Position numbers and translations under genes: made by a program. Below the pieces are notes generated by a model. The model was not told where the DNA came from and did no database searches. It was given only the letters and a program-made list of their open reading frames with translations. A DNA stretch of 64,000 bases from a virus, in the IMG/VR virus record IMGVR_UViG_3300042465_004839, positions 1 through 64,000 of that record; one strand, 5' to 3'. Positions 2,092-53,693 of the stretch are shown piece after piece. How positions within the stretch are numbered: the first letter of the stretch is position 1; every line of letters begins with the position of its first letter.

Positions 2092-3420
2092 ATGAACATT
2101 TATAATCAAAACGTGGCATTTAATTATCGTGGGATACTTAACCTTGACGCTACTACAATAAATACTCCTTTAGATGCTACACTTCGTGCAGTAACTGACG
2201 GAACAGGAACTTCTTCTGTACTAAATTTGAGTACTACTCAAGTAAATGTGGGAGGGGGTTCTGCATTAGGTAGATTAGTAGTTAGAGGAGATGGAACAAA
2301 TCCTATTGCTAGGTTTGAAAATAGTGGAGGTACAGCTTTAGTTACTATTAATCAAAGTATATTAGGAGCAAATGTAGCATTTACAAATGCTTTTACACTA
2401 TTAGGAAATACAGGAACTACTGTATTTAATAGTACCATAAATGCAAATGTTACTGGAAGTGTTGGGGCATTAGCAGTATTTGATTATACAATGTCTAATG
2501 ATATATCGACATCATCAACATCGAATTATTTTAGAGTTTTTAAAACAATATCTCCTGCTGCTGGTAGTGCAAATTTTAGAAATTTAATAGTTGATTATAC
2601 TATTAATGCAAGTGGCGTTCAAACAGGCAATGCAACAGGTATATTCTTAAATGCTACAGAAACTTTGTTAAATGGGATGACTCATAATTTGATGGATTTG
2701 CAAGTTGGTGGGGTTAGTAAATTTTTAGTTAGTAGGGCGGGAACGTTAACATTGTTAGGTAATATAAATGCTTCGGGGGGGGGGATAAGTGGCAATTTAT
2801 TGTCTTTTAGTGGATTGGGTGAATTTTTAGCGCAATCTGACGGGGTTTTTACTGTTAGGAATAATGCTGGCACAAGTTTTAACCGTTTACAATTAGGCGG
2901 CACAACGTCAAGTTTTCCATCTATAAAACGCAACGGAGCGGCTATTGATTTTAGGTTGGCTGATGATTCGGCTAATTGCAATATAAATACGGGTCATATT
3001 TTTGGTGGTACGGGTGCGACTTTTGACATAGGTTCTGCTTCACAATCATATGCAAATTTATTTGTTAATTTAAGTCAAAAAGTTGGCTCTCCTTTTAAAT
3101 TAATATGGTATTCAAACAATTTAGCAGTTGGCTCACCCGATACAAGTATTAGCCGCTATTCTGCAAATGTTGTAAGAATTGGAAATGAAACAACGGGAGC
3201 GGGGAATTTATTTGTAGGTGGTTCAACGGGTTACGATTCAACCGCAATTTTACAAGCAGATAGCACAACAAAAGGCTTTTTAATGCCACGTCAAACTCAA
3301 GCGCAAATTTTAGCAATAGTAACACCCGCAAACGGTTTGCAAGTATATAACACCGATTTAAACCAGCCTTGTTTTTATGACGGTACGGGCTGGAAAAAAA
3401 TTAATCATTCACCAATGTAA
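2092..3420 (+). CDS. Tail fibre-like protein
   Basis: Gly/Asn/Thr-rich. The C-terminal DSTTKGFLMPR...PANGLQVYNTDLN...YDGTGW motif is common in Bacteroidota fibre and surface proteins. Confidence 0.65.
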   Translation: MNIYNQNVAFNYRGILNLDATTINTPLDATLRAVTDGTGTSSVLNLSTTQVNVGGGSALGRLVVRGDGTNPIARFENSGGTALVTINQSILGANVAFTNAFTLLGNTGTTVFNSTINANVTGSVGALAVFDYTMSNDISTSSTSNYFRVFKTISPAAGSANFRNLIVDYTINASGVQTGNATGIFLNATETLLNGMTHNLMDLQVGGVSKFLVSRAGTLTLLGNINASGGGISGNLLSFSGLGEFLAQSDGVFTVRNNAGTSFNRLQLGGTTSSFPSIKRNGAAIDFRLADDSANCNINTGHIFGGTGATFDIGSASQSYANLFVNLSQKVGSPFKLIWYSNNLAVGSPDTSISRYSANVVRIGNETTGAGNLFVGGSTGYDSTAILQADSTTKGFLMPRQTQAQILAIVTPANGLQVYNTDLNQPCFYDGTGWKKINHSPM

Positions 3421-22195: not shown

Positions 22196-22270
22196 TTGTC
22201 GGGAGCAAGGAATTGAACCTCATTTTCTACCTCTCGTAGGTAGTGTAATTGCCATTATACGACATCCCAA
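22196..22270 (-). tRNA. Degenerate tRNA-like gene (non-canonical anticodon loop TACGAGA)
   Basis: D-arm GTAT-AATGGCAA-TTAC, anticodon stem CTACC/GGTAG, T-arm TGAGG-TTCAATT-CCTTG; imperfect acceptor stem, no U33. Confidence 0.55.
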
Positions 22271-23938: not shown

Positions 23939-25096
23939 TTAAAAAATGTGTGAAATTCGTGCAATTTGACCATTTTCCTTACAATGCAAAAATGCTTCAC
24001 AACATTTTGGTGCGTGTTGATATCCGTTTCTGTGATGCCAACTGTCTGTACCTGAAGGACTTCTTAGACTTTCAATAGTTATACCTGCATAATCCTTGCT
24101 TGTCTTATGGTGGACGTGGTGTGTATAGATGTAACGATGTTTTGTTGCAGCCCACTCTCTACTAAACTCTACTGCCATTAATAGAGGCAAATCTTGTTGT
24201 TTCGCACCATCTCCATGAGTTGTGCCTATTAAATTTTTGTAATATTGAAAACCTTTTCTATGCGCTATTGAACAATCGAATGTTATGTTTTTACAGTCTT
24301 TAAAATATGTTTCAATTACCTGAGCAAGAAAAAATCCGTTAGTATAATCGTGATTACTTGGGTTAAATGTAAAGTGTACGTCTGCTATACTAATTAATAT
24401 TTCTAATACTTCAATGTATAATTGTTTTGCAATTAAAAAGTTGCTGTGCCACATTCCATCAGTATCTTGTGGAGTTCCGCTTGTAGTAGTTCTATTCGGA
24501 TTATCTATGTGGAGGATATCGTTACCGCCAATAAATAAAATTTTGTCTATATTAAAACTTGAAACCTTTTGTAATATACCTTTTACTCCATCTAAAACTC
24601 TTTGAACTGCTATTTGATTATTGTATGACTCTCCACTTTCAAAAGATGTACATAGTTTCCCAATATGTATATCTGCAGGATCTAAAACTAATAAGTAAGA
24701 ATCTTTGTTTTCTATTCTTTTTAATTTAGGGAATTTAGGAATATAAGCTTGAATATCTTTTATTAGTTCTGCTCTAAAATCTAATTCTAATAGTTCCTCT
24801 GGGGCTACAAAATTAGGATTCTTAATAAACAAACTTGCGGTTTTGTTTTTAAGCCACAAGTGTTTAACATTTCCAAAGTCTACATCTAACCCTTCAGTTG
24901 CTTCGTAAATTCCTTCGTGTTTATCTAAAATTCTATTACGATTTCTTCTTACATAAGTTCTTAGTAAGTCTACTTGGTATTTATCATCTCCTAAAATCGA
25001 TTTTGCTACCTGTTGGTCTGTAAATGATTCATTTTTTAATAAACACTCCTTAATTTTATTATCGTAAATAGTCCATTGTGATGTTTTGTTTCCCAT
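23939..25096 (-). CDS. Calcineurin-like metallophosphoesterase
   Basis: DIHIG, GNDILH, SNHD, THGD, HHVHH motifs. Confidence 0.85.
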   Translation of the reverse strand: MGNKTSQWTIYDNKIKECLLKNESFTDQQVAKSILGDDKYQVDLLRTYVRRNRNRILDKHEGIYEATEGLDVDFGNVKHLWLKNKTASLFIKNPNFVAPEELLELDFRAELIKDIQAYIPKFPKLKRIENKDSYLLVLDPADIHIGKLCTSFESGESYNNQIAVQRVLDGVKGILQKVSSFNIDKILFIGGNDILHIDNPNRTTTSGTPQDTDGMWHSNFLIAKQLYIEVLEILISIADVHFTFNPSNHDYTNGFFLAQVIETYFKDCKNITFDCSIAHRKGFQYYKNLIGTTHGDGAKQQDLPLLMAVEFSREWAATKHRYIYTHHVHHKTSKDYAGITIESLRSPSGTDSWHHRNGYQHAPKCCEAFLHCKENGQIARISHIF

Positions 25097-25102
25097 ATAT
25101 GT

Positions 25103-25297
25103 TTATTTAAACCCAAATAAATTTTTAATATTGTCTAATACATCATCTTCAAAAATATTAGATTTAGTAATGTCTTCTACACTAATATAGTTTAGTCTGT
25201 CATTTACTTGTTTCTTGGCATCTTCTATATTATAAGCTCTAACCTTAGTACTCATCTTTCTACCGTAGAATTCAAAACGTAGTATGTAATCTTTCAT
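25103..25297 (-). CDS. Small hypothetical protein (probably leaderless)
   Basis: TACTTTTG at 25309-25302, 4 nt before the ATG. Confidence 0.6.
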   Translation of the reverse strand: MKDYILRFEFYGRKMSTKVRAYNIEDAKKQVNDRLNYISVEDITKSNIFEDDVLDNIKNLFGFK

Positions 25298-25471
25298 ATT
25301 GCAAAAGTAGTGATGTTTAGCTAAATAACTAATTAAATTAATTTAATCGAATTATATTCTTGGGTACTATACCTTTGTTAGATAATATTTTAGCTAAAAT
25401 TAATATTAAAAGAGTAAATAGCTAAAATGTTAGATTAAAAAAATATAATTTGTTTTATTGAATGTAGTTAT

Positions 25472-25593
25472 TATATTTGCAGCGTACTAATTGGTATTAT
25501 TGAAGTAGAGAGCAGTAATACCTATTAACTAGGATTAATTAAACAATTAATCAAGCCCTGAACAATTCTCTACTTGTTTGGGGCTTTTATTTT
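25472..25593 (+). promoter_or_regulatory. Promoter + three-hairpin leader with complementary loops and terminator
   Basis: TATATTTG 25472-79; hairpins 25493-25522, 25533-25552, 25553-25586; U-rich tail. Confidence 0.7.
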
Positions 25594-25595
25594 AT

Positions 25596-26057
25596 ATGAA
25601 AAACTTTGATAGTTTTAAAAACGCAATTTCGGTATACCTAAAGTTTAACGATAGATATTGCCTTCAATATTTAGAGCCAATAGGTCATAAAAAAATTTCT
25701 ATTATTTTATCTTTAATTAGAAAAGACAATGAAATTACACAGGAACAATATTATACAGTATGTTCAATGTATAGTCATTTCTATAGTAATTATTTTAAAA
25801 TAAAAAATTTAAATAGTTTAGAACCAAGAAAAATTGCACAGCAGTTTATTAGTAGAAAAAAAATAAGACATTTTATTTTTAAAAGAGATGGTTTTAAGTG
25901 CTTAAAGTGTGGTTCTGAAAATAAATTACAGATTGACCATATATTACCAATAGCAAAAAAAGGAGAAAATAAAATATCAAATTTACAAACACTTTGTATT
26001 TTTTGTAACAGTAAAAAAAGAGATAATTATAAAGACTATAGAAATGGCGGAAAATAA
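25596..26057 (+). CDS. HNH endonuclease (start revised to ATG 25596)
   Basis: RDGFKCLKCG...IDHILP...G.N...NLQTLCIFCNSKK. Confidence 0.85.
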   Translation: MKNFDSFKNAISVYLKFNDRYCLQYLEPIGHKKISIILSLIRKDNEITQEQYYTVCSMYSHFYSNYFKIKNLNSLEPRKIAQQFISRKKIRHFIFKRDGFKCLKCGSENKLQIDHILPIAKKGENKISNLQTLCIFCNSKKRDNYKDYRNGGK

Positions 26058-26679
26058 AAAATCATTTATTGCATATTCTGATTGGCATGGAATGTTCCAC
26101 GCACTTCCAGATGAAGTTGCAGGCAAATTAATTAAACATATATTCTCTTATGTAAATGACGAGAATCCTTCAAGCGAAGATTTTATTATAAATGCTTTAT
26201 TTGAGCAGATAAAAGCAACTCTTAAAAGGGATTTAATTAAATGGGATAAAGAGCGTATTCAAAGAAGTGACGCAGGTAAAAAAAGTGCTGAATTAAGGTC
26301 AATCAAATTCAACGAGCGTTCAACGGAAGTTAACGAGCTTCAACGAAAAGCAACTGTAAGTGTAAGTGATAGTGTAAATGAAAATGAAATAAATAAGGAT
26401 ATAGATTTTAAAAAACCAAGTTTAGAAAATTGCATTGAAATTTTTAAAACTAAAACTGCTTTTAATTGGACAGAAAATTATGCATTAAAATCAGCAAACA
26501 CATTTTATTATTTTTATGAATCTAAAAATTGGATGGTTGGTAAAAATAAAATGAAAAGTTTAAATGGTGCTATTGGTGGTTGGATTTCAAGGGATCAAAA
26601 CCCTGAATTATCTACAACTAAATCTAAAGAACAAATAATTAACGAAAAAAAAGCATATTATAAAAATTTAGGATTCTAA
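26044..26679 (+). CDS. Replication initiator-like protein (DUF6291-like N-terminus)
   Basis: KKSFIAYSDW...LPDEVAGKLIKHIFSY; C-terminal FYYFYESKNWMVGKNKMK; adjacent to the helicase. Confidence 0.7.
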   Translation: MAENKKSFIAYSDWHGMFHALPDEVAGKLIKHIFSYVNDENPSSEDFIINALFEQIKATLKRDLIKWDKERIQRSDAGKKSAELRSIKFNERSTEVNELQRKATVSVSDSVNENEINKDIDFKKPSLENCIEIFKTKTAFNWTENYALKSANTFYYFYESKNWMVGKNKMKSLNGAIGGWISRDQNPELSTTKSKEQIINEKKAYYKNLGF

Positions 26680-26681
26680 TT

Positions 26682-27689
26682 ATGAACGTAAAAATAATTG
26701 ATTATTACAAAAAAAGTGATGAATTTGAAAACTATCATACAACTGGCGGTGCAGGAATGAACTACGCAGGTTTTGAATGTTTAAACGGAGTGTTTCAGTT
26801 TGCTCAAGATGGTATTACAGATATAACAGGAACACCGGGAAGTGGTAAAACTGAATTTGGATTAGAACTTTTGTTTTATCAGTCAGAGGTTTTTGGGTTA
26901 CGACACTTGATTTATGCTCCTGACATCGGTAGTTACAACGAAATAAGAAGAAAACTACTTGTAAAGTACTACAGAAGAAGCTTTAGAGGATATGCGAACT
27001 CAATAACAAAAACAGAGTTAGTCACTTGTATAGCTTTTATTGATACACACTTTCTTATAGCTGCAAAGTCTGACATAAAAAAACCTTTAACACCAATGGA
27101 CTTATGGAACTTTACCGTTGATTACAAGGATAATAGTGGTGGTATTGACACTTGCTTTATTGATAGTTGGAAAAACTTATACCACGACTATACAGGCAGA
27201 GAGGATCAGTACTTAGACTATATTTTATGTTATAGAAACGAGTTAGCAGAAGCAACAAAAAAGCATTTTATGACTATATCCCATCCTAAATCTACTGAGT
27301 TTGACAAAGATACCAAGAAGCCAAGAATACCAACAGCGCACGATATAAGTGGTGGAGCTTCTTGGTTTAGAAATGGTAAAACCATTGTAACTATTGACTG
27401 GGCAGATAGAGAAAATGGAAACATTGATGCATACTTTTGGAAGGTAAAGCCTGACACAATTGGTAGAGCAAAGTTAATATTTCAAGAGCTTGAGTTTGAT
27501 TGGAAGAAGTCAAGGTATAGGGAAACGATTGAGGGGCGAATATGTTACGCAGGACAAGGCAAGGAGTTAAGAGAAAAAGGTGAATTTATCGGATTTGGTA
27601 GCGTAGATAAAAGCATTAGGGCAGGAGAACAGATAGCAACTCAAGCAAGTTTTGATTTACCATCACAAGATAATGATATCCCATTTTAA
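26682..27689 (+). CDS. SF4 (DnaB/T7 gp4-like) helicase domain
   Basis: Walker A GTPGSGKT, Walker B CFIDSW, SHPK, DISGGASW; acidic NDIPF tail. Confidence 0.8.
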   Translation: MNVKIIDYYKKSDEFENYHTTGGAGMNYAGFECLNGVFQFAQDGITDITGTPGSGKTEFGLELLFYQSEVFGLRHLIYAPDIGSYNEIRRKLLVKYYRRSFRGYANSITKTELVTCIAFIDTHFLIAAKSDIKKPLTPMDLWNFTVDYKDNSGGIDTCFIDSWKNLYHDYTGREDQYLDYILCYRNELAEATKKHFMTISHPKSTEFDKDTKKPRIPTAHDISGGASWFRNGKTIVTIDWADRENGNIDAYFWKVKPDTIGRAKLIFQELEFDWKKSRYRETIEGRICYAGQGKELREKGEFIGFGSVDKSIRAGEQIATQASFDLPSQDNDIPF

Positions 27690-28094: not shown

Positions 28095-28290
28095 AAACAA
28101 ACAAAAACATGGAAAAAAAAGAATTATTATTAGAAATTGAGTGTAAGTATGGGTTCTATACCTGCGCAAACAAAGTTGAATCATTTTGTGAAACTTGTAA
28201 TGAAGGAGATAATTATGAAGACAATGGGGAATAAAATGAATTTTTTTGATGGTTTATTTTATTATGTGGACAAATTTATTATATTTGCAT

Positions 28291-28746
28291 ATGGAAAAAA
28301 TATTAGAACAATATGATAACAAATATTCAGTTACAACTGAAGGAAAAGTTTTTAGTTTAAAAGGAAACAAAAAAGAATTATTAGGGAAAATATGTAAATC
28401 AGGTTATAGACAAATTCTTATTAACCACAAAGGAATTAGAAAGTATTTTTTAGTTCATAGATTAATATTATCATCTTTTGTTCTTAATCCTTTTAATAAA
28501 AGAACAGTTAATCATAAAGATGGAAATAAATTAAATAATAATGTATCTAATTTAGAATGGAATACAGATTCTGAAAATCAAATTCACGCTATTGAAAAAA
28601 AACTTATTATACATAAAATTGATTACGAAATTGCTGAAAAAATAAGAAATGATGTAGGAAGTCATAGAGAATTAGCAATAAAATACAAATTAGGTAAAAC
28701 ACAAATTGGATATATTAAACAAAATAAAAGATGGAAAATAAAATAA
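28291..28746 (+). CDS. HNH homing endonuclease (start revised to 28291)
   Basis: VHRLI...VNHKDGNKLNNNVSNLEW...EN; TATATTTG at 28280-87. Confidence 0.85.
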   Translation: MEKILEQYDNKYSVTTEGKVFSLKGNKKELLGKICKSGYRQILINHKGIRKYFLVHRLILSSFVLNPFNKRTVNHKDGNKLNNNVSNLEWNTDSENQIHAIEKKLIIHKIDYEIAEKIRNDVGSHRELAIKYKLGKTQIGYIKQNKRWKIK

Positions 28747-30479
28747 ATGTATTGTCTTTGTTCGATGGTTGTTCGTGCGGAAGACAAGCTCTTGAGAGAG
28801 CAGGAATAGAAGTAAATCAGTACTTTGCATCTGAAATTGATAAGTACGCTATTCAAGTTACAATGGCTAACTATCCAGACACAATTCAGTTAGGTAGTGT
28901 AGTAAATGTTGATGGAAAGTCATTACCAAAGATAGAATTGCTACTTGGAGGATCCCCATGCACCAATTTTTCATTTGCAGGTAAACGTAAGGGTATGTCT
29001 ACTAAAGATGAGCAAGAAATATTAACTTTAGAGCATTACTTACAGTTAAAAACTGAAGGATTTGAGTTTGAGGGTCAGTCTTACCTATTTTGGGAGTATA
29101 TGAGGCTACTAAATGAGGTAAAACCTACATACTTTCTTCTTGAAAACGTAGAAATGGGTGAAAAATGGGAAAAAGTACTAAGTAAAGCCATTGGGTACAA
29201 CGGAATTCATATAAATTCTGCATTAGTGTCAGCTCAGAACCGTAAAAGAATCTACTGGACAAATATTGGTATGCAACCTGCTGGATTATTTGGTGATTTA
29301 GAGTCTATTATTCAGCAACCTAAAGATAGGGGTATACTTTTAAAGGATATTTTACAAGATAATCCAAATGCTAAGTACTATATTTCCTCAAAAATGGAGG
29401 AGCATTTAAACTCAAGAGATTCTGTTAAAATAAAAAATGGTGAAGATAAAAGTGGTACAATTACTACAAATGGTGAGGGCAAACAAGGCAATAACTCTAC
29501 ATTTATTTGTCAAGAAGTTGATGAAAAGTATTTTTTAAGTGAAAGTCTAATAAGTAAGCTTCATGTATACAACCAAAGACAGATTGATAACGGCAATGGG
29601 TTTATGGCTAAATTTAGAGATACAAATGTAGTTGAAAAGATGGACTGTATAAAAATTGGTGGTGGGATGAAGGATGACTTAATAGTTCACAACACAATGC
29701 CACGCTCATCAACTACAGGAAAGGGTGGTACTGGTCCGTTAAGTAGAAATGATGGTAAAACATACTGCTTAGACACAAAGAATACCAATGCATTAGAGAT
29801 TGTATGTGGTCAGTTAGGCTACGATAAGCCATTTGAAGAAAACGATAAGGCTCAAGCACTACTACAAAGAGATTACAAGGGTATGAGTAACTACGGAATT
29901 AATGTAGTGGTAAATGCAAATGGGGCTAAAGAACAGGTAGTAGGTAGGAAAGCTCAAGAAGATGGAACTTACAAAAGAGAGTACGAGGTTTCAAATGATG
30001 AAAAGGCTAAAACATTGGAAACAAACAAACAAAAAAACAATGTTGTGATTAGAGAAATAAAACAAATAAGCCAAAACAACAAGTCAAATGGTGGCACTCA
30101 GCCTTACCAACAGGATAGAGTATACGATGTTGATGGCATAAGTCCTGCACTAACAAGTCAACTGCCTAAAGGAAGTTCTATGATTTATTTAAATGAAAAT
30201 CAACAAAAAAAATTTAACCCAAACATAGATTCAGATAAAGCCAATACACTTACACTTGCTATAGGAAGAGCAGGTAGCAGTAGTGAGTATATGGACTCTG
30301 TTTCTAAAATAGCTAATATCACATCAAGAATTAGAAGACTTACCCCAGTAGAGTGTGAAAGATTACAGACAGTTGCAGACAATTATACTGCACACGTTTC
30401 AGATTCTCAGAGGTACAAGATGCTTGGAAATGGTTGGACGATTTCAGTTATAGCCCACATATTTAGTTACATAAAATAA
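28731..30479 (+). CDS. C5 cytosine DNA methyltransferase with expanded variable region
   Basis: LSLFDG (I), GGSPC (IV), ENV (VI), QNRKR (VIII), RRLTPVECERLQ (IX), LGNGW (X). Confidence 0.93.
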   Translation: MENKINVLSLFDGCSCGRQALERAGIEVNQYFASEIDKYAIQVTMANYPDTIQLGSVVNVDGKSLPKIELLLGGSPCTNFSFAGKRKGMSTKDEQEILTLEHYLQLKTEGFEFEGQSYLFWEYMRLLNEVKPTYFLLENVEMGEKWEKVLSKAIGYNGIHINSALVSAQNRKRIYWTNIGMQPAGLFGDLESIIQQPKDRGILLKDILQDNPNAKYYISSKMEEHLNSRDSVKIKNGEDKSGTITTNGEGKQGNNSTFICQEVDEKYFLSESLISKLHVYNQRQIDNGNGFMAKFRDTNVVEKMDCIKIGGGMKDDLIVHNTMPRSSTTGKGGTGPLSRNDGKTYCLDTKNTNALEIVCGQLGYDKPFEENDKAQALLQRDYKGMSNYGINVVVNANGAKEQVVGRKAQEDGTYKREYEVSNDEKAKTLETNKQKNNVVIREIKQISQNNKSNGGTQPYQQDRVYDVDGISPALTSQLPKGSSMIYLNENQQKKFNPNIDSDKANTLTLAIGRAGSSSEYMDSVSKIANITSRIRRLTPVECERLQTVADNYTAHVSDSQRYKMLGNGWTISVIAHIFSYIK

Positions 30480-31369: not shown

Positions 31370-32041
31370 ATGAATAAATACATCACATACTTCAGAGTAA
31401 GTACAAAAGAGCAAGGACAGAGTGGCTTAGGATTAGCTGCCCAAGAACAAATGGTTCTACCCATCACCAACAACGGAATAGTAGTGGCATCATTTACAGA
31501 AGTAGAGTCAGGAAACAAGTCTAACCGTAAAGAGTTAGAAAAGGCTATCAATACCTGTAAACAACATAACGCCATACTCCTCGTAGCAAAACTTGATAGA
31601 CTATCTCGTAACGTACACTTCATTAGTACACTTATGGAAAGTAAAGTACAGTTCAAGTGTGCCGATGCCCCAGAGATGGACTCATTCACCGTACACATAT
31701 TCTCAGCTCTCGCAGAAAGAGAACGTAAAATGATTTCCGACAGAACCAAAGGCGCACTACAAAGCATCAAAAGAATCATTGACAGAGATGGTGAGTACAC
31801 CACTAAAGCAGGTAGAGTAATATCTACTCTCGGTAACGGTCTACTACAAAACAAAGAAACTGCCAAAAAACAAATGGCGTACGTTGCATCCCACAGAGTA
31901 TACCAAAAAAAGTCTAACATAGGTCTTGCCCTCGTACAGTCACTATCACAAAATGGTGTTCCCAAGAAAGATATTAAACAAAAACTTGCCGATAACGGTA
32001 TTAACGTGTCACTACAAACAATATATAAATATGCAAAATAA
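31370..32041 (+). CDS. Serine recombinase (resolvase/invertase family)
   Basis: YFRVSTKEQ (catalytic Ser), ESG, KLDRLSR, AERERKMISDRTK; C-terminal HTH-like; own promoter at 31310-31347. Confidence 0.93.
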   Translation: MNKYITYFRVSTKEQGQSGLGLAAQEQMVLPITNNGIVVASFTEVESGNKSNRKELEKAINTCKQHNAILLVAKLDRLSRNVHFISTLMESKVQFKCADAPEMDSFTVHIFSALAERERKMISDRTKGALQSIKRIIDRDGEYTTKAGRVISTLGNGLLQNKETAKKQMAYVASHRVYQKKSNIGLALVQSLSQNGVPKKDIKQKLADNGINVSLQTIYKYAK

Positions 32042-32222: not shown

Positions 32223-32705
32223 ATGAGCAAACAAACAGCAAAATATATAATACCGCACATGACATTATCCATTGATGGTAGTTTATATAACCACAAAACA
32301 AAAAAATTTAAAAAGTGGACAAAAGATACTAATGGTTATATGAAAACACAAATTTGGGTTGGCGGAAAACCAAAAAACGTACATCAACATAGATTACTTG
32401 CTCAAGAATTTATTAATAACTCAAAAAATAAAAAGCAAGTAAATCATATTAATGGTATTAAGCATGATAATAGAATAGAAAATCTTGAATGGGTTACTCA
32501 ATCTGAAAATGGGTTACATTCATTTGCTAATGGATTGCAAAAAGTTACAAAACCTTGTAAAAAAGTAATTGATACTAGTAATAATAAAATTTATGATAGT
32601 GTAACAGAAGCAGCTAAACATAATGGAATATCAAGAAGTCATTTATCTAATATGCTTACAGGTAAATTTAATAATAAAACAACACTTAAATTATATGGAA
32701 AATAA
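32223..32705 (+). CDS. HNH homing endonuclease with NUMOD1-like tail
   Basis: HRLLA...VNHINGIKHDNRIENLEWVT...YDSVTEAAK. Confidence 0.88.
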   Translation: MSKQTAKYIIPHMTLSIDGSLYNHKTKKFKKWTKDTNGYMKTQIWVGGKPKNVHQHRLLAQEFINNSKNKKQVNHINGIKHDNRIENLEWVTQSENGLHSFANGLQKVTKPCKKVIDTSNNKIYDSVTEAAKHNGISRSHLSNMLTGKFNNKTTLKLYGK

Positions 32706-33644: not shown

Positions 33645-33660
33645 ATTTGAAATAAAGTAT

Positions 33661-33771
33661 TATATTTGCCCTGTTATAATGCGTGCGGCATAATAAAGAT
33701 ATTGAAAAATTCTCGTACACTTAGAGAAAATTTCAACTAAGCCTGATAGCCGCACGCTGTTGGGTTTTTTT
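33661..33771 (+). promoter_or_regulatory. Promoter + second three-hairpin leader with complementary loops and terminator
   Basis: TATATTTG 33661-68; hairpins 33674-96, 33702-36, 33739-67; T7. Confidence 0.7.
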
Positions 33772-34140
33772 ATGCCCAAAAATTAAGGTAATAATGGTCG
33801 GCACGAAAAAATGACAGCATTATTATTTAAAGCGATACTGTGAGGTATGTATAAATCGCAATCCCAGCTATAAAAGTAAAGGGAATACATTGGAGAATGG
33901 ACACTTCAAAAGTTGTACTTAAATTTGCAAACCCCATTTGTTTGTGATGCACCAAAGAGGGTTGCGGCTCGGGAAAATAGTCGTAATTTGAATAGTGAGT
34001 AGCCAAAGAGTTTAACACCTCTAAGGCTACCGCTATGCACATGGTAAGGATTGCTCTCAAAAAAATAGTTAGTTATAGTATAGTTTAAGTTAAAAAAAAT
34101 TAATTAGAATCCTTTTAAACAATACTTTACCTTTGAACTT

Positions 34141-45796: not shown

Positions 45797-46285
45797 ATGA
45801 AATACGAAATACCAAAGAAGGCAATGGCAATTGTAGATAGTTTAGCAAAATTAGAGTTAGGGCAAACCTCTTTCTATAAAAGACTTGCTCAACAAGCTAA
45901 CAAAACAGGCTTTCTGTTAGCAGAAAAATACTTTGTAGCAGAAAGTATAGAAGAGAATGAACACTTTTTAGGATGGCAAAACTATGTTAATGGTAGAGGA
46001 AATGACTTTTCCATACCAAGTATTGAAGAGTATGATATAGAGGCTAAAGACTTAACTGAACTAATAAACCTAAGTTTAGAGAAAGAGATAGATGTTAGTA
46101 TGGCTTACAACGAAGCGTACAGCGAACTGTTATCATTAGATGTACCAACTGCTATAAAAGTAACAAAATACATTAAAATTCAAACATTAGCAGTAGCAAT
46201 ATACAAAGACTACGCAGCAACATTTAGTGGATTAGACAAAAGTGGACAGTTAGTAGCTGAACACACTATTTTTGAGGAAAACTAA
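45797..46285 (+). CDS. Non-haem ferritin-like protein
   Basis: E..Y..EENEH..E..Q ferroxidase pattern; YVNGRG. Confidence 0.8.
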   Translation: MKYEIPKKAMAIVDSLAKLELGQTSFYKRLAQQANKTGFLLAEKYFVAESIEENEHFLGWQNYVNGRGNDFSIPSIEEYDIEAKDLTELINLSLEKEIDVSMAYNEAYSELLSLDVPTAIKVTKYIKIQTLAVAIYKDYAATFSGLDKSGQLVAEHTIFEEN

Positions 46286-46309
46286 TAACACATTACAATT
46301 TTTAATAAT

Positions 46310-46356
46310 GCTCACCATGCCTCTCAACGATGCACACTTTGGTGGGCTTTTTTTTT
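46310..46356 (+). terminator. Intrinsic terminator after ferritin
   Basis: GCTCACCA/TGGTGGGC stem with a large structured loop, T9. Confidence 0.75.
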
Positions 46357-46403
46357 GTTATAAAAAAGACTAAATTTGTTACTTTAAATAAACATAATAA
46401 TCA

Positions 46404-52302: not shown

Positions 52303-52989
52303 ATGAATACCTTAAAAATAGTAGATGAATTAGTAAGAGCCGTAAATAGCGGTTATAATAGTAGTGACAAGAAAGTTGATGACAATTATATATTTGAAAT
52401 GCTACCACAATGGAGAGCGCAGATGATGATACTTGCCTACAACGGAGGTAAAGTACCAAACAGCAATACTATTATAAAAGGGAATAGATTAATTCCAAGT
52501 GATTGGAAGCAAGAAATAACCTATACTATAAACCCATCACAACAAGACCCAACAGCAGAATATTTAACAGTAACAGGAACACAGTTAGTGAGCTTAAATG
52601 AATTCAATGATGGTATGCAATATTTCGGAACTAAAAGCATTGCTAACAGTTTCTTTTATGCAAGGAGTCTAAATGAAATACAACAGTTAAGAGATTTAAA
52701 ATTATTAACTAAAAAACCTGCTGTACTAATAGTAGGAAACGAAAGAAGAATTTACGGTAATAAACTATTAAAAGAAATATTAGAGGTAGGTATATATCAA
52801 GATCCATACGCTGCTAATACAGTATTTAATTACAATACAGATAAGTTCCCAATAGCAGAGGATAATATTTACCTAATGAAAGAAATAGCAATTGCTGCAT
52901 TAAGGACAGAGTTCAAGGCAATAAAAGATGTAACTGCCGATGGCGGTCAGATTGAACAAGCAACTTTGAAAAACAATATTTTAGGATAG
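52303..52989 (+). CDS. Ring/connector protein (crAss-like)
   Basis: SSDKKVDDNYI...QWRA..., EVGIYQDP...FPI...D motif layout. Confidence 0.55.
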   Translation: MNTLKIVDELVRAVNSGYNSSDKKVDDNYIFEMLPQWRAQMMILAYNGGKVPNSNTIIKGNRLIPSDWKQEITYTINPSQQDPTAEYLTVTGTQLVSLNEFNDGMQYFGTKSIANSFFYARSLNEIQQLRDLKLLTKKPAVLIVGNERRIYGNKLLKEILEVGIYQDPYAANTVFNYNTDKFPIAEDNIYLMKEIAIAALRTEFKAIKDVTADGGQIEQATLKNNILG

Positions 52990-52993
52990 AAAT

Positions 52994-53029
52994 AAAAAAG
53001 CCCTAACTAAAAATTAGGGCTTTTCTTTT
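52994..53029. terminator. Bidirectional terminator between convergent late operons
   Basis: AAAAAAGCCCTAA-CTAAAAA-TTAGGGCTTTT. Confidence 0.85.
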
Positions 53030-53693
53030 AGTAAGTCTTGAATGCAAATTTGTTGTTAATATCAGCCACTCGTTTGGTATCCTGTGAGTCATTCTCCGCA
53101 GCAAGACCTCTGATGTATCTTTTCTCTACCTTGTACTCGTGAACATAAGTAGCGTACTTAGCCATTTGAGATGGGTCACCACGTTCTAAACAGAAGTCAG
53201 CGCATACTCCGAAGGTCAAACATAAATCAGCTACACGAGGTAAAACTAAATCTCCGTTCTCATCGGTATTAATTCCTATGTAAGAAATTTCACACCACAA
53301 GTCCTCTATGGCACTTCCGAACCAAATGTAATTATCCTTAACTCTTGCTGAAGTATTGTTATTAAAGTCACCCTTATAGAATCCAGTTGTAGGTGCATAA
53401 GGTGCAGTAGAGTTAATGTCATTTAAGGCTTTAAAAGTTCTAATAGGATTATGACCCTCAAGAATAATAAAACCTTTCGGCAACGGTGCTGTAAACGTAG
53501 TCAAATCAATTGGTATTTGAGCAATTTGAGTAGGAAACACAAAGAAATTCCTTAACTTCCTTACGTTATCGTTTATACTGTTATAAAGATAAGCATCGTG
53601 CAGGGGAGTATCACTAATCCCAAGTTTTAACTTAACCCTTTGTAGAATCTCATTTTCAGAAACTACATCAAAAATACCATTGTCGTTAGTCAT
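53028..53693 (-). CDS. Ring/connector protein
   Basis: APLPKGF...ISYIGINTDENGDLVLP pattern. Confidence 0.55.
   Translation of the reverse strand: MTNDNGIFDVVSENEILQRVKLKLGISDTPLHDAYLYNSINDNVRKLRNFFVFPTQIAQIPIDLTTFTAPLPKGFIILEGHNPIRTFKALNDINSTAPYAPTTGFYKGDFNNNTSARVKDNYIWFGSAIEDLWCEISYIGINTDENGDLVLPRVADLCLTFGVCADFCLERGDPSQMAKYATYVHEYKVEKRYIRGLAAENDSQDTKRVADINNKFAFKTY

Follow-up and report, generated by a model that had tools for sequence, protein, structure and literature searches.

A leader RNA with complementary hairpin loops and a terminator precedes the replication genes of Flavobacterium-type phages

The window analysed here, the whole 64,000-nt stretch taken from the 73,169-nt IMG/VR record IMGVR_UViG_3300042465_004839, contains an uncatalogued RNA element directly in front of a phage replication operon. 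Comparison with relatives supports the view that this stretch is a transcribed leader and not a chance set of hairpins, and establishes that the design recurs before the replication modules of many Flavobacterium-type phages. On balance, we think that the 5' leader RNA of the operon acts as an attenuator, gating the operon through a terminator with kissing loops. How Bacteroidota phages regulate their genes is almost unexplored, and essentially none of their regulatory RNAs has been catalogued; here a compact element of ~100 nt, strongly supported by comparison, occupies the point at which expression of the replication genes is decided.

The leader (25449-25598, + strand) is arranged in the order promoter, hairpin H1, spacer hairpin H2, terminator hairpin H3, U tail and ATG. 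The promoter consists of TTTG (25449-25452) and TATATTTG (25472-25479) with 19 nt between them, which matches the Bacteroidota -33/-7 type, and the RNA would start at about 25484-25488. Folding and an inverted-repeat scan identified both H1 and H2. The core stem of H1 (25493-25502 / 25513-25522) has 10 pairs including one G-U and encloses loop 1, AAGTAGAGAG (25503-25512); its arms can be extended to 25488-25502 / 25513-25527, the four extra pairs being 25488-25491 / 25524-25527. H2, GATTAATT-AAAC-AATTAATC (25533-25540 / 25545-25552), has eight perfect pairs and directly adjoins H3, with 0 nt between. The stem of H3 (25553-25565 / 25574-25586; fold and scans) lies 74 nt downstream of the -7 box and has 13 pairs, five of them G-C and two G-U, with a hairpin energy of -16.5 kcal/mol and an 8-nt loop 3, TTCTCTAC (25566-25573). 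The U-rich tail is TTATTTTAT (25587-25595; TTATTTTATA as a terminator tail), and the first ATG of the operon (25596-25598) comes 10 nt after H3. A G+C-rich stem, a short loop and a U run right after the stem indicate that H3 is probably an intrinsic terminator. The promoter, three hairpins, U tail and ATG had been proposed in an earlier sequence-only reading of this DNA; all of these elements are present, and its stem coordinates were right to within 1 nt.

H3 has the longest stem among the terminator-like sites between 20000 and 36000, although the number of such sites in the scan (7) was not above that in shuffled sequences (6.1), and the TATATTTG word was not enriched in the window (11 observed versus 9.2 expected). 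These scans prove nothing alone; the weight rests on comparison with relatives. RNAfold predicted exactly three hairpins for the leader, with an MFE of -33.4 kcal/mol (z = -4.78), and none of 200 shuffles was as stable. Reading the sequence by eye, we found no ATG within 25480-25595, and the TTG frames terminate immediately; attenuation by a leader peptide was rejected for this reason. The only one of four DNA runs to cover the leader, X2, carries an identical copy with no variant, and no public RNA run was found to contain the stretch.

A complementarity scan of the + strand revealed that AAGTAGAGA in loop 1 (25503-25511) and TCTCTACTT (25567-25575) are 100% complementary over 9 nt, such that 25503-25511 can pair with 25575-25567 in a loop-loop (kissing) contact. 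G25512-U25566 adds a G-U, giving a total kissing helix of nine Watson-Crick pairs and one G-U. The pairing of GTAGAGAG with TTCTCTAC over 8 nt, as originally read, is real but comprises seven Watson-Crick pairs and a G-U, and a suggested invasion of the terminator stem extends to only 2 nt of its 3' arm. The paired words are exposed, with a mean unpaired probability of 0.77 for loop 1 and 0.90 for loop 3 versus 0.43 overall (19 leaders). In 18 of 20 leaders the hairpin state was more stable, by 1.2-15.2 kcal/mol, than a nested long-range helix; the exceptions that prefer the nested helix are L035 and a second leader in the window (33660-33775), and only in these two was a mutually exclusive antiterminator fold found. 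This suggests that the contact is a loop-loop tertiary pair and not a classical antiterminator, and also that a single mechanism may not cover all leaders. The one long-range pairing that is conserved is that of loop 1 with loop 3. Members of the window's subfamily have short linkers (4-6 nt, H2 and another 0-4 nt), which may put strain on an intramolecular coaxial kissing complex; such steric remarks are estimates.

Most related leaders were found by position and design rather than by sequence. Searches of the first 112 loci with blastn and nhmmer matched L021 alone, and the sole match of the leader DNA among GenBank phages was an unrelated 44-nt AT-rich stretch in Clostridium phages. The homologous leader of L021 carries GTAGTGAG in loop 1 and CTCACTAC in loop 3, an A-to-T change relative to the window that is mirrored by a T-to-A change. 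Approximately 20 different matched loop words occur across the related leaders; those in the replication-operon leaders of relatives recognised at the protein level, which have the same layout, include GTCAGAGC/GCTCTGAC, GTGAGAGC/GCTCTCAC, GTGGTGG/CCACCAC compared with GTAGCGG/CCGCTAC, GCGCAT/ATGCGC compared with GTGCAT/ATGCAC, GGTTGTAGC/GCTACAACC, GAGAGAG/CTCTCTC and CATCCTAC/GTAGGATG. Covariation between the loops of homologues, on which the sequence-only reading had made its proposal depend, is thus present, and complementary loop bases appear to be kept via compensatory changes, as in a kissing contact.

This matching was assessed with controls. When hairpin loops alone were compared, nine of 21 representatives had a cognate complement of 7 nt or longer, versus 2 of 420 non-cognate pairs, and 12 had one of 6 nt or longer, versus 9 of 420. 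The complement lies outside the apical loops in four of the 21, namely in an internal loop in L022 and L044 and behind the U tract in L010 and L040. A pattern search that left the word unconstrained returned 62 matches (59 IMG/VR stretches, the window, L021 and L114), 28 of which (11 distinct) combined a T-rich tail with a complement of 8 nt or longer. Among the matches listed for the same pattern in bacterial genomes (at least 120 stretches), none had a complement of at least 8 nt and one had 7 nt, and those listed were ordinary terminators only. These position-anchored and cognate versus non-cognate tests replaced cruder descriptor scans, which in a relaxed version also hit the wrong strand with 7-nt matches in the L068 group and L111. 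A scan of the whole window for further units was noisy, with 7-10-nt AT-rich words equally frequent in the downstream control, and only 25553-25586 and 33740-33766 stood out.

An alignment of 13 sequences from the window's subfamily, A4, gave a covariation score of 0.380 versus 0.154 +/- 0.018 for shuffled alignments (0 of 500 reached it) and at most 0.125 with slid partners. In A4, 97.1% of the kissing helix is paired, and at two of its positions both partners have changed (AU in 8 and CG in 5; AU in 7 and UA in 6); in H1 this holds for eight of the 10 pairs, with 93.8% of cells paired. RNAalifold independently recovered the H1 helix, and a hand tally of all RNAalifold pairs in A4 gave 26 G-U versus 3 A-C cells, which fits an RNA of the + strand. 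On this comparative evidence, the loop 1 / loop 3 pairing is under selection, as are H1 and H3. Outside the stems, invariance is found chiefly in loop 1 with its flanks (TGAAGT..GCA), at the base of H3 and in the U tail, and A4 does not appear to contain a conserved unpaired ligand-binding core as expected of a riboswitch.

The layout is conserved beyond the subfamily, although more distant leaders have no sequence in common with it. Of 57 related leaders, 34 have a terminator-like hairpin and T tract immediately 5' of the operon's first ATG, and the other 23 have no terminator at the corresponding place. In 26 of the 34, TAnnTTTG occurs in the 100 nt upstream of the terminator, where the background rate of these loci would predict 8%, and the order promoter, terminator, ATG across relatives leaves no room for a second promoter. 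The terminator would thus be promoter-proximal and lie between the only promoter and the first gene, as in a transcription attenuator; this part of the attenuator proposal is upheld, whereas the antiterminator fold that would go with it is disfavoured in the 18 leaders above. A motif test of the opposite strand found TAnnTTTG in 4 of 34 leaders, where ~14% would be expected by chance for 173 nt, and reading of the window's own leader found none. The same design is present in the cultured Flavobacterium phages FL-1, V156 (FCL-2-like), FCOV-S1 and snusmum9-1, and it also precedes DnaB-like, primase, Prim-Pol/DUF3987 and VirE modules. Terminator strength varies from ~-27 kcal/mol with U7 in L054 to a weak hairpin of 7 pairs with an 18-nt loop in L029, a range that fits cleanly neither with kissing that helps termination nor with kissing that hinders it. 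A hairpin of 5-8 pairs at the position of H2 is in the MFE fold of all 13 subfamily members, but is not universal, as the ~19-nt spacers of more distant leaders have no hairpin.

A covariance model of the subfamily, R1, reached only a few of the other leaders, L019 and L020 at an E-value of 1e-4 and L030, L029 and L024 weakly, so that common descent of all variants is not evident from it. Three further R1 matches were rejected: weak ones at 52966-53058 and 46261-46364 are an ordinary bidirectional terminator and the terminator of an abiF motif, and the match in L037 bears none of the leader features. No Rfam family fitted the leader; C4 was absent at the gathering score and among the 16 matches to 25430-25640 at E-values up to 10. 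The 13 related loci had no Rfam match at the gathering score, and our literature searches found no description of this leader RNA. The best match, the trpB motif (RF04312; 27.1 bits, E = 0.047), is far below its gathering score of 59. That motif occurs in Firmicutes and Fusobacteria before amino-acid genes and has its antiterminator in the right shoulder of P1 (PMC11109978). The two are alike only in having a hairpin and an intrinsic terminator, a generic resemblance.

The first gene behind the leader (25596..26057, + strand) encodes an HNH endonuclease of 153 aa (PF01844, E = 3.5e-10). It is followed on the same strand by a DUF6291 protein (26044-26679) and a primase/helicase-like P-loop protein (26682-27689), for which the profile evidence applies jointly to 26044..27689 (PF19808, E = 7.7e-20; phrog_5482, E = 2.2e-45; phrog_239, E = 1.2e-6). 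Other first genes are found in relatives with the same or a similar leader. In L260 the same loop word occurs in a leader that is followed by a 68-aa ORF, a 209-aa ORF and a homologous helicase without an HNH gene, which makes it probable that the HNH gene was inserted behind the leader, ahead of the replication genes. The operon had been described as HNH-initiator-helicase; replication genes do follow the leader, but the HNH gene is probably not an original part. The first small ORFs behind ten leaders have no common family or similarity, so there is no conserved linked protein among them.

The second leader (33660-33775) is of the same design but has a different word, GCGTGCGGC, at 33681-33689 and 33749-33757. 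Downstream of it are ~365 nt without a + strand ORF of at least 50 aa, which makes this unit look like a stand-alone RNA gene; on the minus strand past it there is a 77-aa ORF with a TTG start.

From this arrangement we infer where transcription starts and stops, the effect of the contact on termination and its sign, and what might modulate it. A host-type RNA polymerase would start a few bases 5' of H1 and make H1, the spacer (H2 in this case) and then H3, whose U tract stops 1 nt before the ATG. With a canonical terminator in this place, most transcripts should terminate early, as an RNA of ~100-110 nt, and the operon would be expressed by read-through alone. The H1 loop is predicted to dock on the loop of the terminator hairpin through 7-10 bp with both stems intact, and this kissing contact would set how well or how fast H3 forms, and so gate the entry of polymerase into the replication genes. 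The more likely sign, by analogy, is that kissing favours the terminator (OFF), since the kissing loop of the corrinoid riboswitch stabilises the hairpin that it kisses; occupying either loop would then relieve OFF.

A possible alternative, which we hold tentatively, casts the terminated leader RNA as the regulator: its two loops are mutually complementary, so free leader could pair with nascent leaders from its own or sister genomes in the manner of a same-strand 'antisense' RNA. Its accumulation would alter termination or translation, resulting in a time- or copy-number-dependent shut-off (as for P4 CI RNA) or switch-on (as for IsrK); head-to-tail dimers with two kissing contacts might also form, and differing words would prevent cross-talk among co-infecting phages and among the operons of one phage. 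Against it, a partner in cis has a large local-concentration advantage. In its favour, the short linkers of the subfamily may disfavour docking in cis, and promoter, hairpins and terminator together have the layout of an sRNA gene, as does the stand-alone-like second unit with its different word in the same genome. The word GTAGTGAG is kept on diverged scaffolds (L021, L251 and L121 types). Loop words evolve no faster than stems and so give no sign of diversifying selection. The window holds no extra target site for either word, an exact AGTAGAGAG on the minus strand at 24155-24163 being within chance, and Rfam gave no C4/CI match. The short and long isoforms of IsrK and P4 CI RNA with seqA and seqC provide precedents (PMC4825925). 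A more specific form, in which the terminated leader is a self-addressed RNA timer or copy counter for the replication genes, we regard as a speculative but realistic prospect. In that form a terminated leader and a nascent one would pair head-to-tail, each through its loop 1 with the loop 3 of the other, so that the fate of polymerase at the terminator would depend on the accumulated leader RNA, an RNA-only early-to-late or dosage switch, and evolvable loop addresses would keep the operons (AAGTAGAGA in the first leader, GCGTGCGGC in the second) and co-infecting phages orthogonal.

The remaining explanations seem less probable than attenuation by the leader. A promoter, short leader, strong terminator and operon form the classical antitermination layout, and Rom recognises kissing complexes. 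The leader matches this layout, and it is conceivable, though unlikely, that it is a unit of the lambda PR'-6S-tR' type, in which the operon stays silent until polymerase is rendered terminator-resistant by a factor of the phage or host and kissing merely shapes or stabilises the leader RNA or forms a structure recognised by the factor. Recognition of shape would let the words drift freely, and the genome has two copies of the design, one ahead of the replication genes and the other at 33660-33775. There is no conservation of the first gene behind the leaders, however, so no linked factor is visible, and the 73,169-nt record has no NusG-like, Q or Antiterm family (PF06530, PF03589, PF02357), a weak negative because most phage proteins have no family. 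A translational operator, in which H3, stabilised by kissing and ending 7-10 nt before the AUG of the read-through mRNA, limits ribosome access in a host that initiates without a Shine-Dalgarno sequence and the U tract is simply the landing site, is improbable as the sole function, since it leaves unexplained the full intrinsic-terminator features of H3 in nearly all leaders. Translational occlusion may well act in addition to attenuation. In its favour, the ATG directly follows the U tract in many leaders (e.g., TTTTTTTATG in L046 and L054), the type-B leaders L010 and L040 have a hairpin loop complementary to words past the U tract, beside the ATG, and a kissing loop controls an RBS hairpin in the corrinoid riboswitch (PMC10327014). 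Finally, the words could act as DNA, either as inverted half-sites for a dimeric protein at an operator or origin or as single-stranded DNA hairpins. Inverted repeats likewise co-vary when protein specificity changes, and the site adjoins replication genes, but each word occupies a separate hairpin loop, 26 G-U versus 3 A-C cells favour the + strand, the element is flanked by an upstream promoter motif and a downstream T tract, and unrelated replication proteins follow it, all of which makes this reading very improbable indeed.

Among the closest known systems are the immunity systems of satellite phage P4 and of P1/P7 (c4), in which a segment of a replication-operon leader pairs with a same-strand complement. 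In P4, CI RNA (seqB) pairs with seqA and seqC, and pairing in the leader leads to premature termination before the replication genes, preventing their expression (PMC4825925). Here, in contrast, the partners are two hairpin loops ~41-70 nt apart, one of them the terminator's own, there is no evident processing step and no Rfam C4 match, and the host belongs to the Bacteroidota. P1/P7 heteroimmunity works via matched changes in antisense and target. The closest cultured carriers of our leader are Ficleduovirus phages, which are presumably lytic, and no tyrosine integrase was found in the window's record. A short terminated form and a read-through form from one promoter, as predicted here, are also made by IsrK of the Gifsy-1 prophage, where the short RNA acts on the long mRNA (PMC4825925). 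IsrK opens a translationally inactive mRNA by strand pairing, and no docking on a terminator loop is described for it (PMC4825925). In the corrinoid riboswitch, as in our leader, an upstream loop is complementary to the loop of an expression-controlling hairpin; its L5-L13 kissing loop stabilises the expression-platform hairpin and thereby decides the fate of a terminator or RBS hairpin through an aptamer-dependent contact of 4-5 pairs with a conserved UCCCG (PMC10327014). Our leaders instead have 6-10 pairs of free sequence and no conserved pocket-like core, and the kissed hairpin is the terminator itself.

An analogy with plasmid copy-number pseudoknots, drawn at first reading, proves loose. 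Loop-loop RNA contacts in the leader gate replication genes in pT181/pIP501 attenuation and in the IncB/IncI-alpha repZ pseudoknot; this kissing-RNA control works partly by an attenuator just 5' of the rep gene and uses a counter-transcript from the opposite strand. In our leaders, a motif test put the opposite-strand promoter motif at about chance level (4 of 34), and no preemptor helix or leader-peptide ORF was seen. The zipper-type attenuator of the pLS20 conjugation operons likewise lies in the leader of a mobile-element operon, with an upstream sequence complementary to the terminator that decides termination, but its pairing extends a long stem, and an antiterminator conformer takes the terminator's place (PMC13401043), whereas in our set the nested helix is unfavourable for 18 of 20 leaders. 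A mode of action nearer to the zipper type may apply to L035 and to the second leader of the window.

The leader occurs in many freshwater Flavobacterium-type phages, and since its carriers include cultured ones (FL-1, V156/FCL-2-like F. columnare phages and snusmum9-1), its action is directly testable. Action in trans, if real, would make it an RNA-only device that times phage replication or senses dosage for it, and the timer form would be a natural counterpart, widespread in Bacteroidota phages, of engineered orthogonal kissing-loop attenuators. The leader merits an Rfam family, with several subfamilies that are not joined by one covariance model. A terminator loop and an upstream loop that share a freely variable word of 6-10 nt amount to a natural library of orthogonal kissing pairs on terminators, which is of interest for synthetic RNA regulators; its natural alleles include GTAGAGAG/CTCTCTAC, GTAGTGAG/CTCACTAC, GTCGAGAG/CTCTCGAC and GTGGAACG/CGTTCCAC.

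The leader (25472-25596, + strand) sits in a 298-nt gap separating two divergent gene sets of a virus record that is 73,169 nt long, is rated 100% complete and has no tyrosine integrase. The leftward set includes a 64-aa ORF (25103-25297) and a phrog_704 exonuclease (23939-25096). The rightward set has an HNH endonuclease (25596-26057) as the first gene behind the leader, with a DUF6291 protein (26044-26679), a primase/helicase-like protein (26682-27689), a second HNH (28246-28746) and a C5 methyltransferase (28731-30479) beyond it. All the elements listed in the sequence-only reading are present in the window sequence: a promoter, read from the sequence as TTTG (25449-25452) and a TATATTTG box (25472-25479), three hairpins, H1 (25493-25522, loop AAGTAGAGAG), H2 (25533-25552) and the terminator hairpin H3 (25553-25586, loop TTCTCTAC), and a TTATTTTAT tail after H3, followed by the ATG at 25596. 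RNAfold placed H1, H2 and H3 in both the MFE and centroid structures (-33.4 kcal/mol, z = -4.78), with a stability matched by 0 of 200 shuffles, and the hairpin arms were also recovered by a repeat finder. The proposed complementarity between the loops of H1 and H3 (loop 1 and loop 3) was recovered by the repeat finder as a perfect 9-nt match, AAGTAGAGA (25503-25511) with TCTCTACTT (25567-25575), and G25512 and T25566 can form a further G-U pair. No ATG occurs within the leader, which rules out leader-peptide attenuation. Upstream of the promoter, the divergent intergenic region (25316-25435) contains repeated palindromic words, TTTAGCTAAA (at 25316 and 25389), TAGCTAAAAT (at 25391 and 25419) and TGTTAGAT (at 25376 and 25428), possible operators through which a protein could act on the two divergent promoters.

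Scans of the single sequence were weak, as terminator-like sites were no commoner than in shuffles (7 versus 6.1) and the promoter word was not enriched in this AT-rich genome (11 versus 9.2), so the case for the leader rests on its relatives. Our sample comprised 112 IMG/VR loci encoding relatives of the helicase-like or DUF6291 protein. A sequence search of these loci with the window leader returned L021 as the sole match; its scaffold is recognisably that of the window, and its loops (GTAGTGAG and CTCACTAC) differ from those of the window by one change each, with pairing retained. For comparison across the sample, the region upstream of the first replication-operon gene was taken from each locus regardless of sequence. 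Where 175 nt or more could be examined (57 loci), a terminator-like hairpin with a T tract lies directly 5' of the first ATG in 34 and is absent from that place in the remaining 23, which are mostly distant relatives or loci whose gene chain had run into other genes. The 34 leaders form 20 sequence clusters, and in nearly all of them a word in an upstream hairpin loop has an exact complement among the unpaired nucleotides inside the terminator hairpin. The matched words vary from cluster to cluster: GTCAGAGC/GCTCTGAC (L001), GTGAGAGC/GCTCTCAC (L019), TTCGCGG/CCGCGAA (L027), GTGGTGG/CCACCAC (L029), GTAGCGG/CCGCTAC (L030), GCGCAT/ATGCGC (L009), GTGCAT/ATGCAC (L012), GGTTGTAGC/GCTACAACC (L035), GTCAGAT/ATCTGAC (L041), GTAAGAG/CTCTTAC (L046), GAGAGAG/CTCTCTC (L054), GAGTCTC/GAGACTC (L055), GTCGCAT/ATGCGAC (L058) and CATCCTAC/GTAGGATG (L105). 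The terminator hairpins of L029 and L030 have just two differences, both within the word and both matched in loop 1, and those of L009 and L012 have a single difference, again within the word and matched in its partner. In 26 of the 34 leaders (8% expected), a TAnnTTTG -7 box lies no more than 100 nt 5' of the terminator; on the opposite strand the box occurs in 4 of 34, about chance.

As a control, we measured the longest exact complement between each terminator hairpin and the 95 nt upstream of it. The mean was 7.25 in 20 cognate representatives, compared with 5.55 in 380 non-cognate pairs and 5.48 in 4000 shuffles, and complements of at least 7 nt were present in 15/20 cognate and 56/380 non-cognate pairs. 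When RNAfold-defined hairpin loops alone were considered (21 representatives), complements of at least 7 nt were found in 9/21 cognate versus 2/420 non-cognate pairs, and of at least 6 nt in 12/21 versus 9/420. High non-cognate values arise in part from related leaders that share one word (e.g., L012 and L024). Cognate values were lowest in four instructive exceptions: L022 and L044, where a TTCGCA/TGCGAA complement is retained in an internal loop on the 3' side of the terminator hairpin, and L010 and L040, which are of a kind termed type B whose complement is not in the terminator hairpin. A word-free pattern built from the conserved flanks (TGAAGT-N5-GCA, gap, AAGCCC, gap, GGGCTT) gave 62 matches, namely 59 IMG/VR stretches, the window, L021 and L114. 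In 28 of these (11 distinct loop/terminator combinations), the tail is T-rich and the complement reaches 8 nt or more. Of the 34 others, L277 has an 8-nt complement and no T tail and was left out; the rest have complements of 3-7 nt and are clearly unrelated. The same pattern matched at least 120 stretches in bacterial genomes, and among those listed no complement reaches 8 nt, the longest being 7 nt in one and 6 nt in six.

We scored covariation in an alignment of 13 distinct members of the window's leader subfamily, using the window structure written with its pseudoknot. Eight of the ten H1 pairs are changed on both sides (93.8% of cells paired). The loop-loop helix has eight pairs with 97.1% of cells paired, and at two of its positions both partners have changed while every cell stays paired (AU in 8 and CG in 5; AU in 7 and UA in 6). 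The covariation score of the whole structure was 0.380, compared with 0.154 +/- 0.018 in shuffles (reached by 0 of 500) and at most 0.125 when partners were slid. The score of H3 was depressed (71% paired) by misplacement of its arms in the MAFFT alignment. RNAalifold, not supplied with the structure, predicted 21 pairs that make up H1 and the base of H3, 14 of them with compensatory changes, and the excess of G-U over A-C cells in these pairs (26 versus 3) points to a + strand RNA. With longer-stemmed homologues added, one alignable scaffold carries four alleles: GTAGAGAG/CTCTCTAC (window, L260 and phage V156), GTAGTGAG/CTCACTAC, GTCGAGAG/CTCTCGAC, and GTGGAACG/CGTTCCAC (L240 and phage snusmum9-1). 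Among these, 4 of the 8 word positions change in both loops, and pairing is kept every time. The loop-loop covariation on which the sequence-only reading depended is thus present in its homologues, both in the alignment statistics and in the matched words, and this comparison indicates that the leader is a real RNA with real loop-loop pairing.

The layout runs from a promoter, through a hairpin with a loop complementary to the exposed interior of the terminator, to a start codon 1-50 nt from the U tract. As this leaves no space for a further promoter, the operon would be transcribed by read-through alone, and by its architecture the leader is a putative attenuator. Ensemble predictions leave the words exposed (mean probability of being unpaired 0.77 for loop 1 words and 0.90 for loop 3 words versus 0.43 overall), with duplex energies of -6.2 to -15.0 kcal/mol. 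In 18 of 20 leaders the hairpin state is favoured, by 1.2-15.2 kcal/mol, over the nested long-range helix that would form at the expense of H1 and H3, suggesting that the contact is a loop-loop (kissing) pair atop intact hairpins. Several distant leaders have two 7-nt loops that are complementary throughout, which is the classical kissing geometry, as in ColE1 RNA I/II. In corrinoid riboswitches, as outlined in the relevant part of PMC10327014, the L5-L13 kissing loop stabilises P13 and so decides whether a terminator or RBS hairpin forms. By analogy, kissing in the leader would stabilise or nucleate the terminator (OFF), with relief once a loop is occupied; we favour this direction, the opposite sign being possible. 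The attenuator proposed in the sequence-only reading is therefore upheld for the RNA, the loop-loop pairing and the layout, and stays an analogy for the effect of kissing.

A separate docking hairpin is conserved, though a change in the terminator itself would be a simpler constitutive route, which argues for a conditional input. One candidate is the leader RNA itself, acting in trans, and another is a protein recognising the kissing complex; Mg2+ or temperature and transcription speed are further candidates. Occlusion of the start region in the read-through mRNA may add to the effect, since H3 ends 7-10 nt 5' of the AUG and the host group initiates without Shine-Dalgarno pairing.

A search for known families found none at the Rfam gathering score in the window leader or in 13 related loci. 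The best match at E values up to 10 was the trpB motif (27.1 bits versus a gathering score of 59), presented as a riboswitch candidate of Firmicutes/Fusobacteria in the relevant part of PMC11109978, and the likeness is generic, consisting of a hairpin and a terminator. The C4/CI family was absent among matches at E values up to 10. Within the main texts covered by a literature search, such a leader is undescribed for Bacteroidota phages. The closest systems by working principle, as far as the relevant parts of the sources describe them, are the P4 CI RNA with seqA and seqC, where same-strand pairing causes termination before the replication genes (PMC4825925), IsrK, in which the read-through RNA is the target of the short terminated one (PMC4825925), the corrinoid kissing loop and the pLS20 zipper attenuator (PMC13401043). 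By the features tested, the leader belongs to none of these. It is an uncatalogued leader RNA class, kin to attenuators and kissing-loop expression platforms.

Cultured Flavobacterium phages allow direct testing of the leader. Among the closest GenBank relatives of the helicase-like protein, 79 of 80 records are Flavobacterium phages (34-37% identity among the matches listed), and the design was found in four kinds of cultured phage: FL-1 (CGTCTCAC/GTGAGACG, downstream of a TATATTTG box), V156 and its kin (leader identity of 99% or more in 67 of 70 phage records), FCOV-S1 (7 pairs) and Muminvirus snusmum9-1. The genes behind the leader vary, including DUF6291 with helicase, DnaB-like, BT4734-like/PriCT primase, Prim-Pol with DUF3987, helicase-methylase, Lin1244_N, and an annotated helicase with a VirE protein (snusmum9-1), and the first small ORFs have nothing in common. 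In L260, which carries the window's own word, the leader is followed by a 68-aa ORF, a 209-aa ORF and a helicase (28% identity to that of the window, E = 1e-27), with no HNH gene, suggesting that the leader belongs to the replication module. The earlier assignment to an HNH-initiator-helicase operon thus holds for the replication module and not for the HNH gene, which is best read as an insertion behind the leader, where relatives have other genes. The window carries HNH endonuclease genes at 25596-26057, 28246-28746 and 32223-32705, three in all and of two types, located within the replication operon or behind it, and a small serine recombinase/DNA-invertase-like gene (31370-32041, + strand; phrog_125, E = 2.4e-29).

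A second leader of like design lies at 33660-33775 (+ strand), with a word unrelated to that of the first. It consists of a TATATTTG box (33661-33668), a weak hairpin whose loop holds the word GCGTGCGGC (33681-33689), then a spacer hairpin and finally a terminator followed by T7 (33739-33767), inside which lies the complementary word GCCGCACGC (33749-33757). Here the 9-bp G+C-rich long-range (nested) helix is the MFE structure and competes with the upper terminator stem, so this leader, as modelled, may act as a true antiterminator switch. No + strand ORF of at least 50 aa follows within about 365 nt; the minus strand has a 77-aa ORF with a TTG start. That a single genome carries two such units whose words are unrelated is consistent with a role of the words as addresses.

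Type-B leaders (L010, L017 and L018, ~3290-3370; L040, ~2830-2915) have a two-hairpin domain closed by GGG/CCC, then a T run. Their loop word, GCACGTT or TTCACGTT, has its complement 3' of the T run, adjoining the ATG, and the words co-vary between L010 and L040, which suggests a translational variant of the leader. The stretch at 46311-46347 (+ strand) matches the Rfam abiF RNA motif (RF03085; 39.9 bits versus a gathering score of 37); it is a terminator-like hairpin, followed by T9, at a gene end and is not a kissing leader. A tRNA-Ser(CGA) gene is located at 22198-22270 (- strand) of the window. Beyond the first gene downstream of the FL-1 leader, the intergenic stretch (2478-2702) contains a sequence that ends in a tRNA-like GGTTCGAACCCC T-arm and may be a tRNA gene unannotated in the record.
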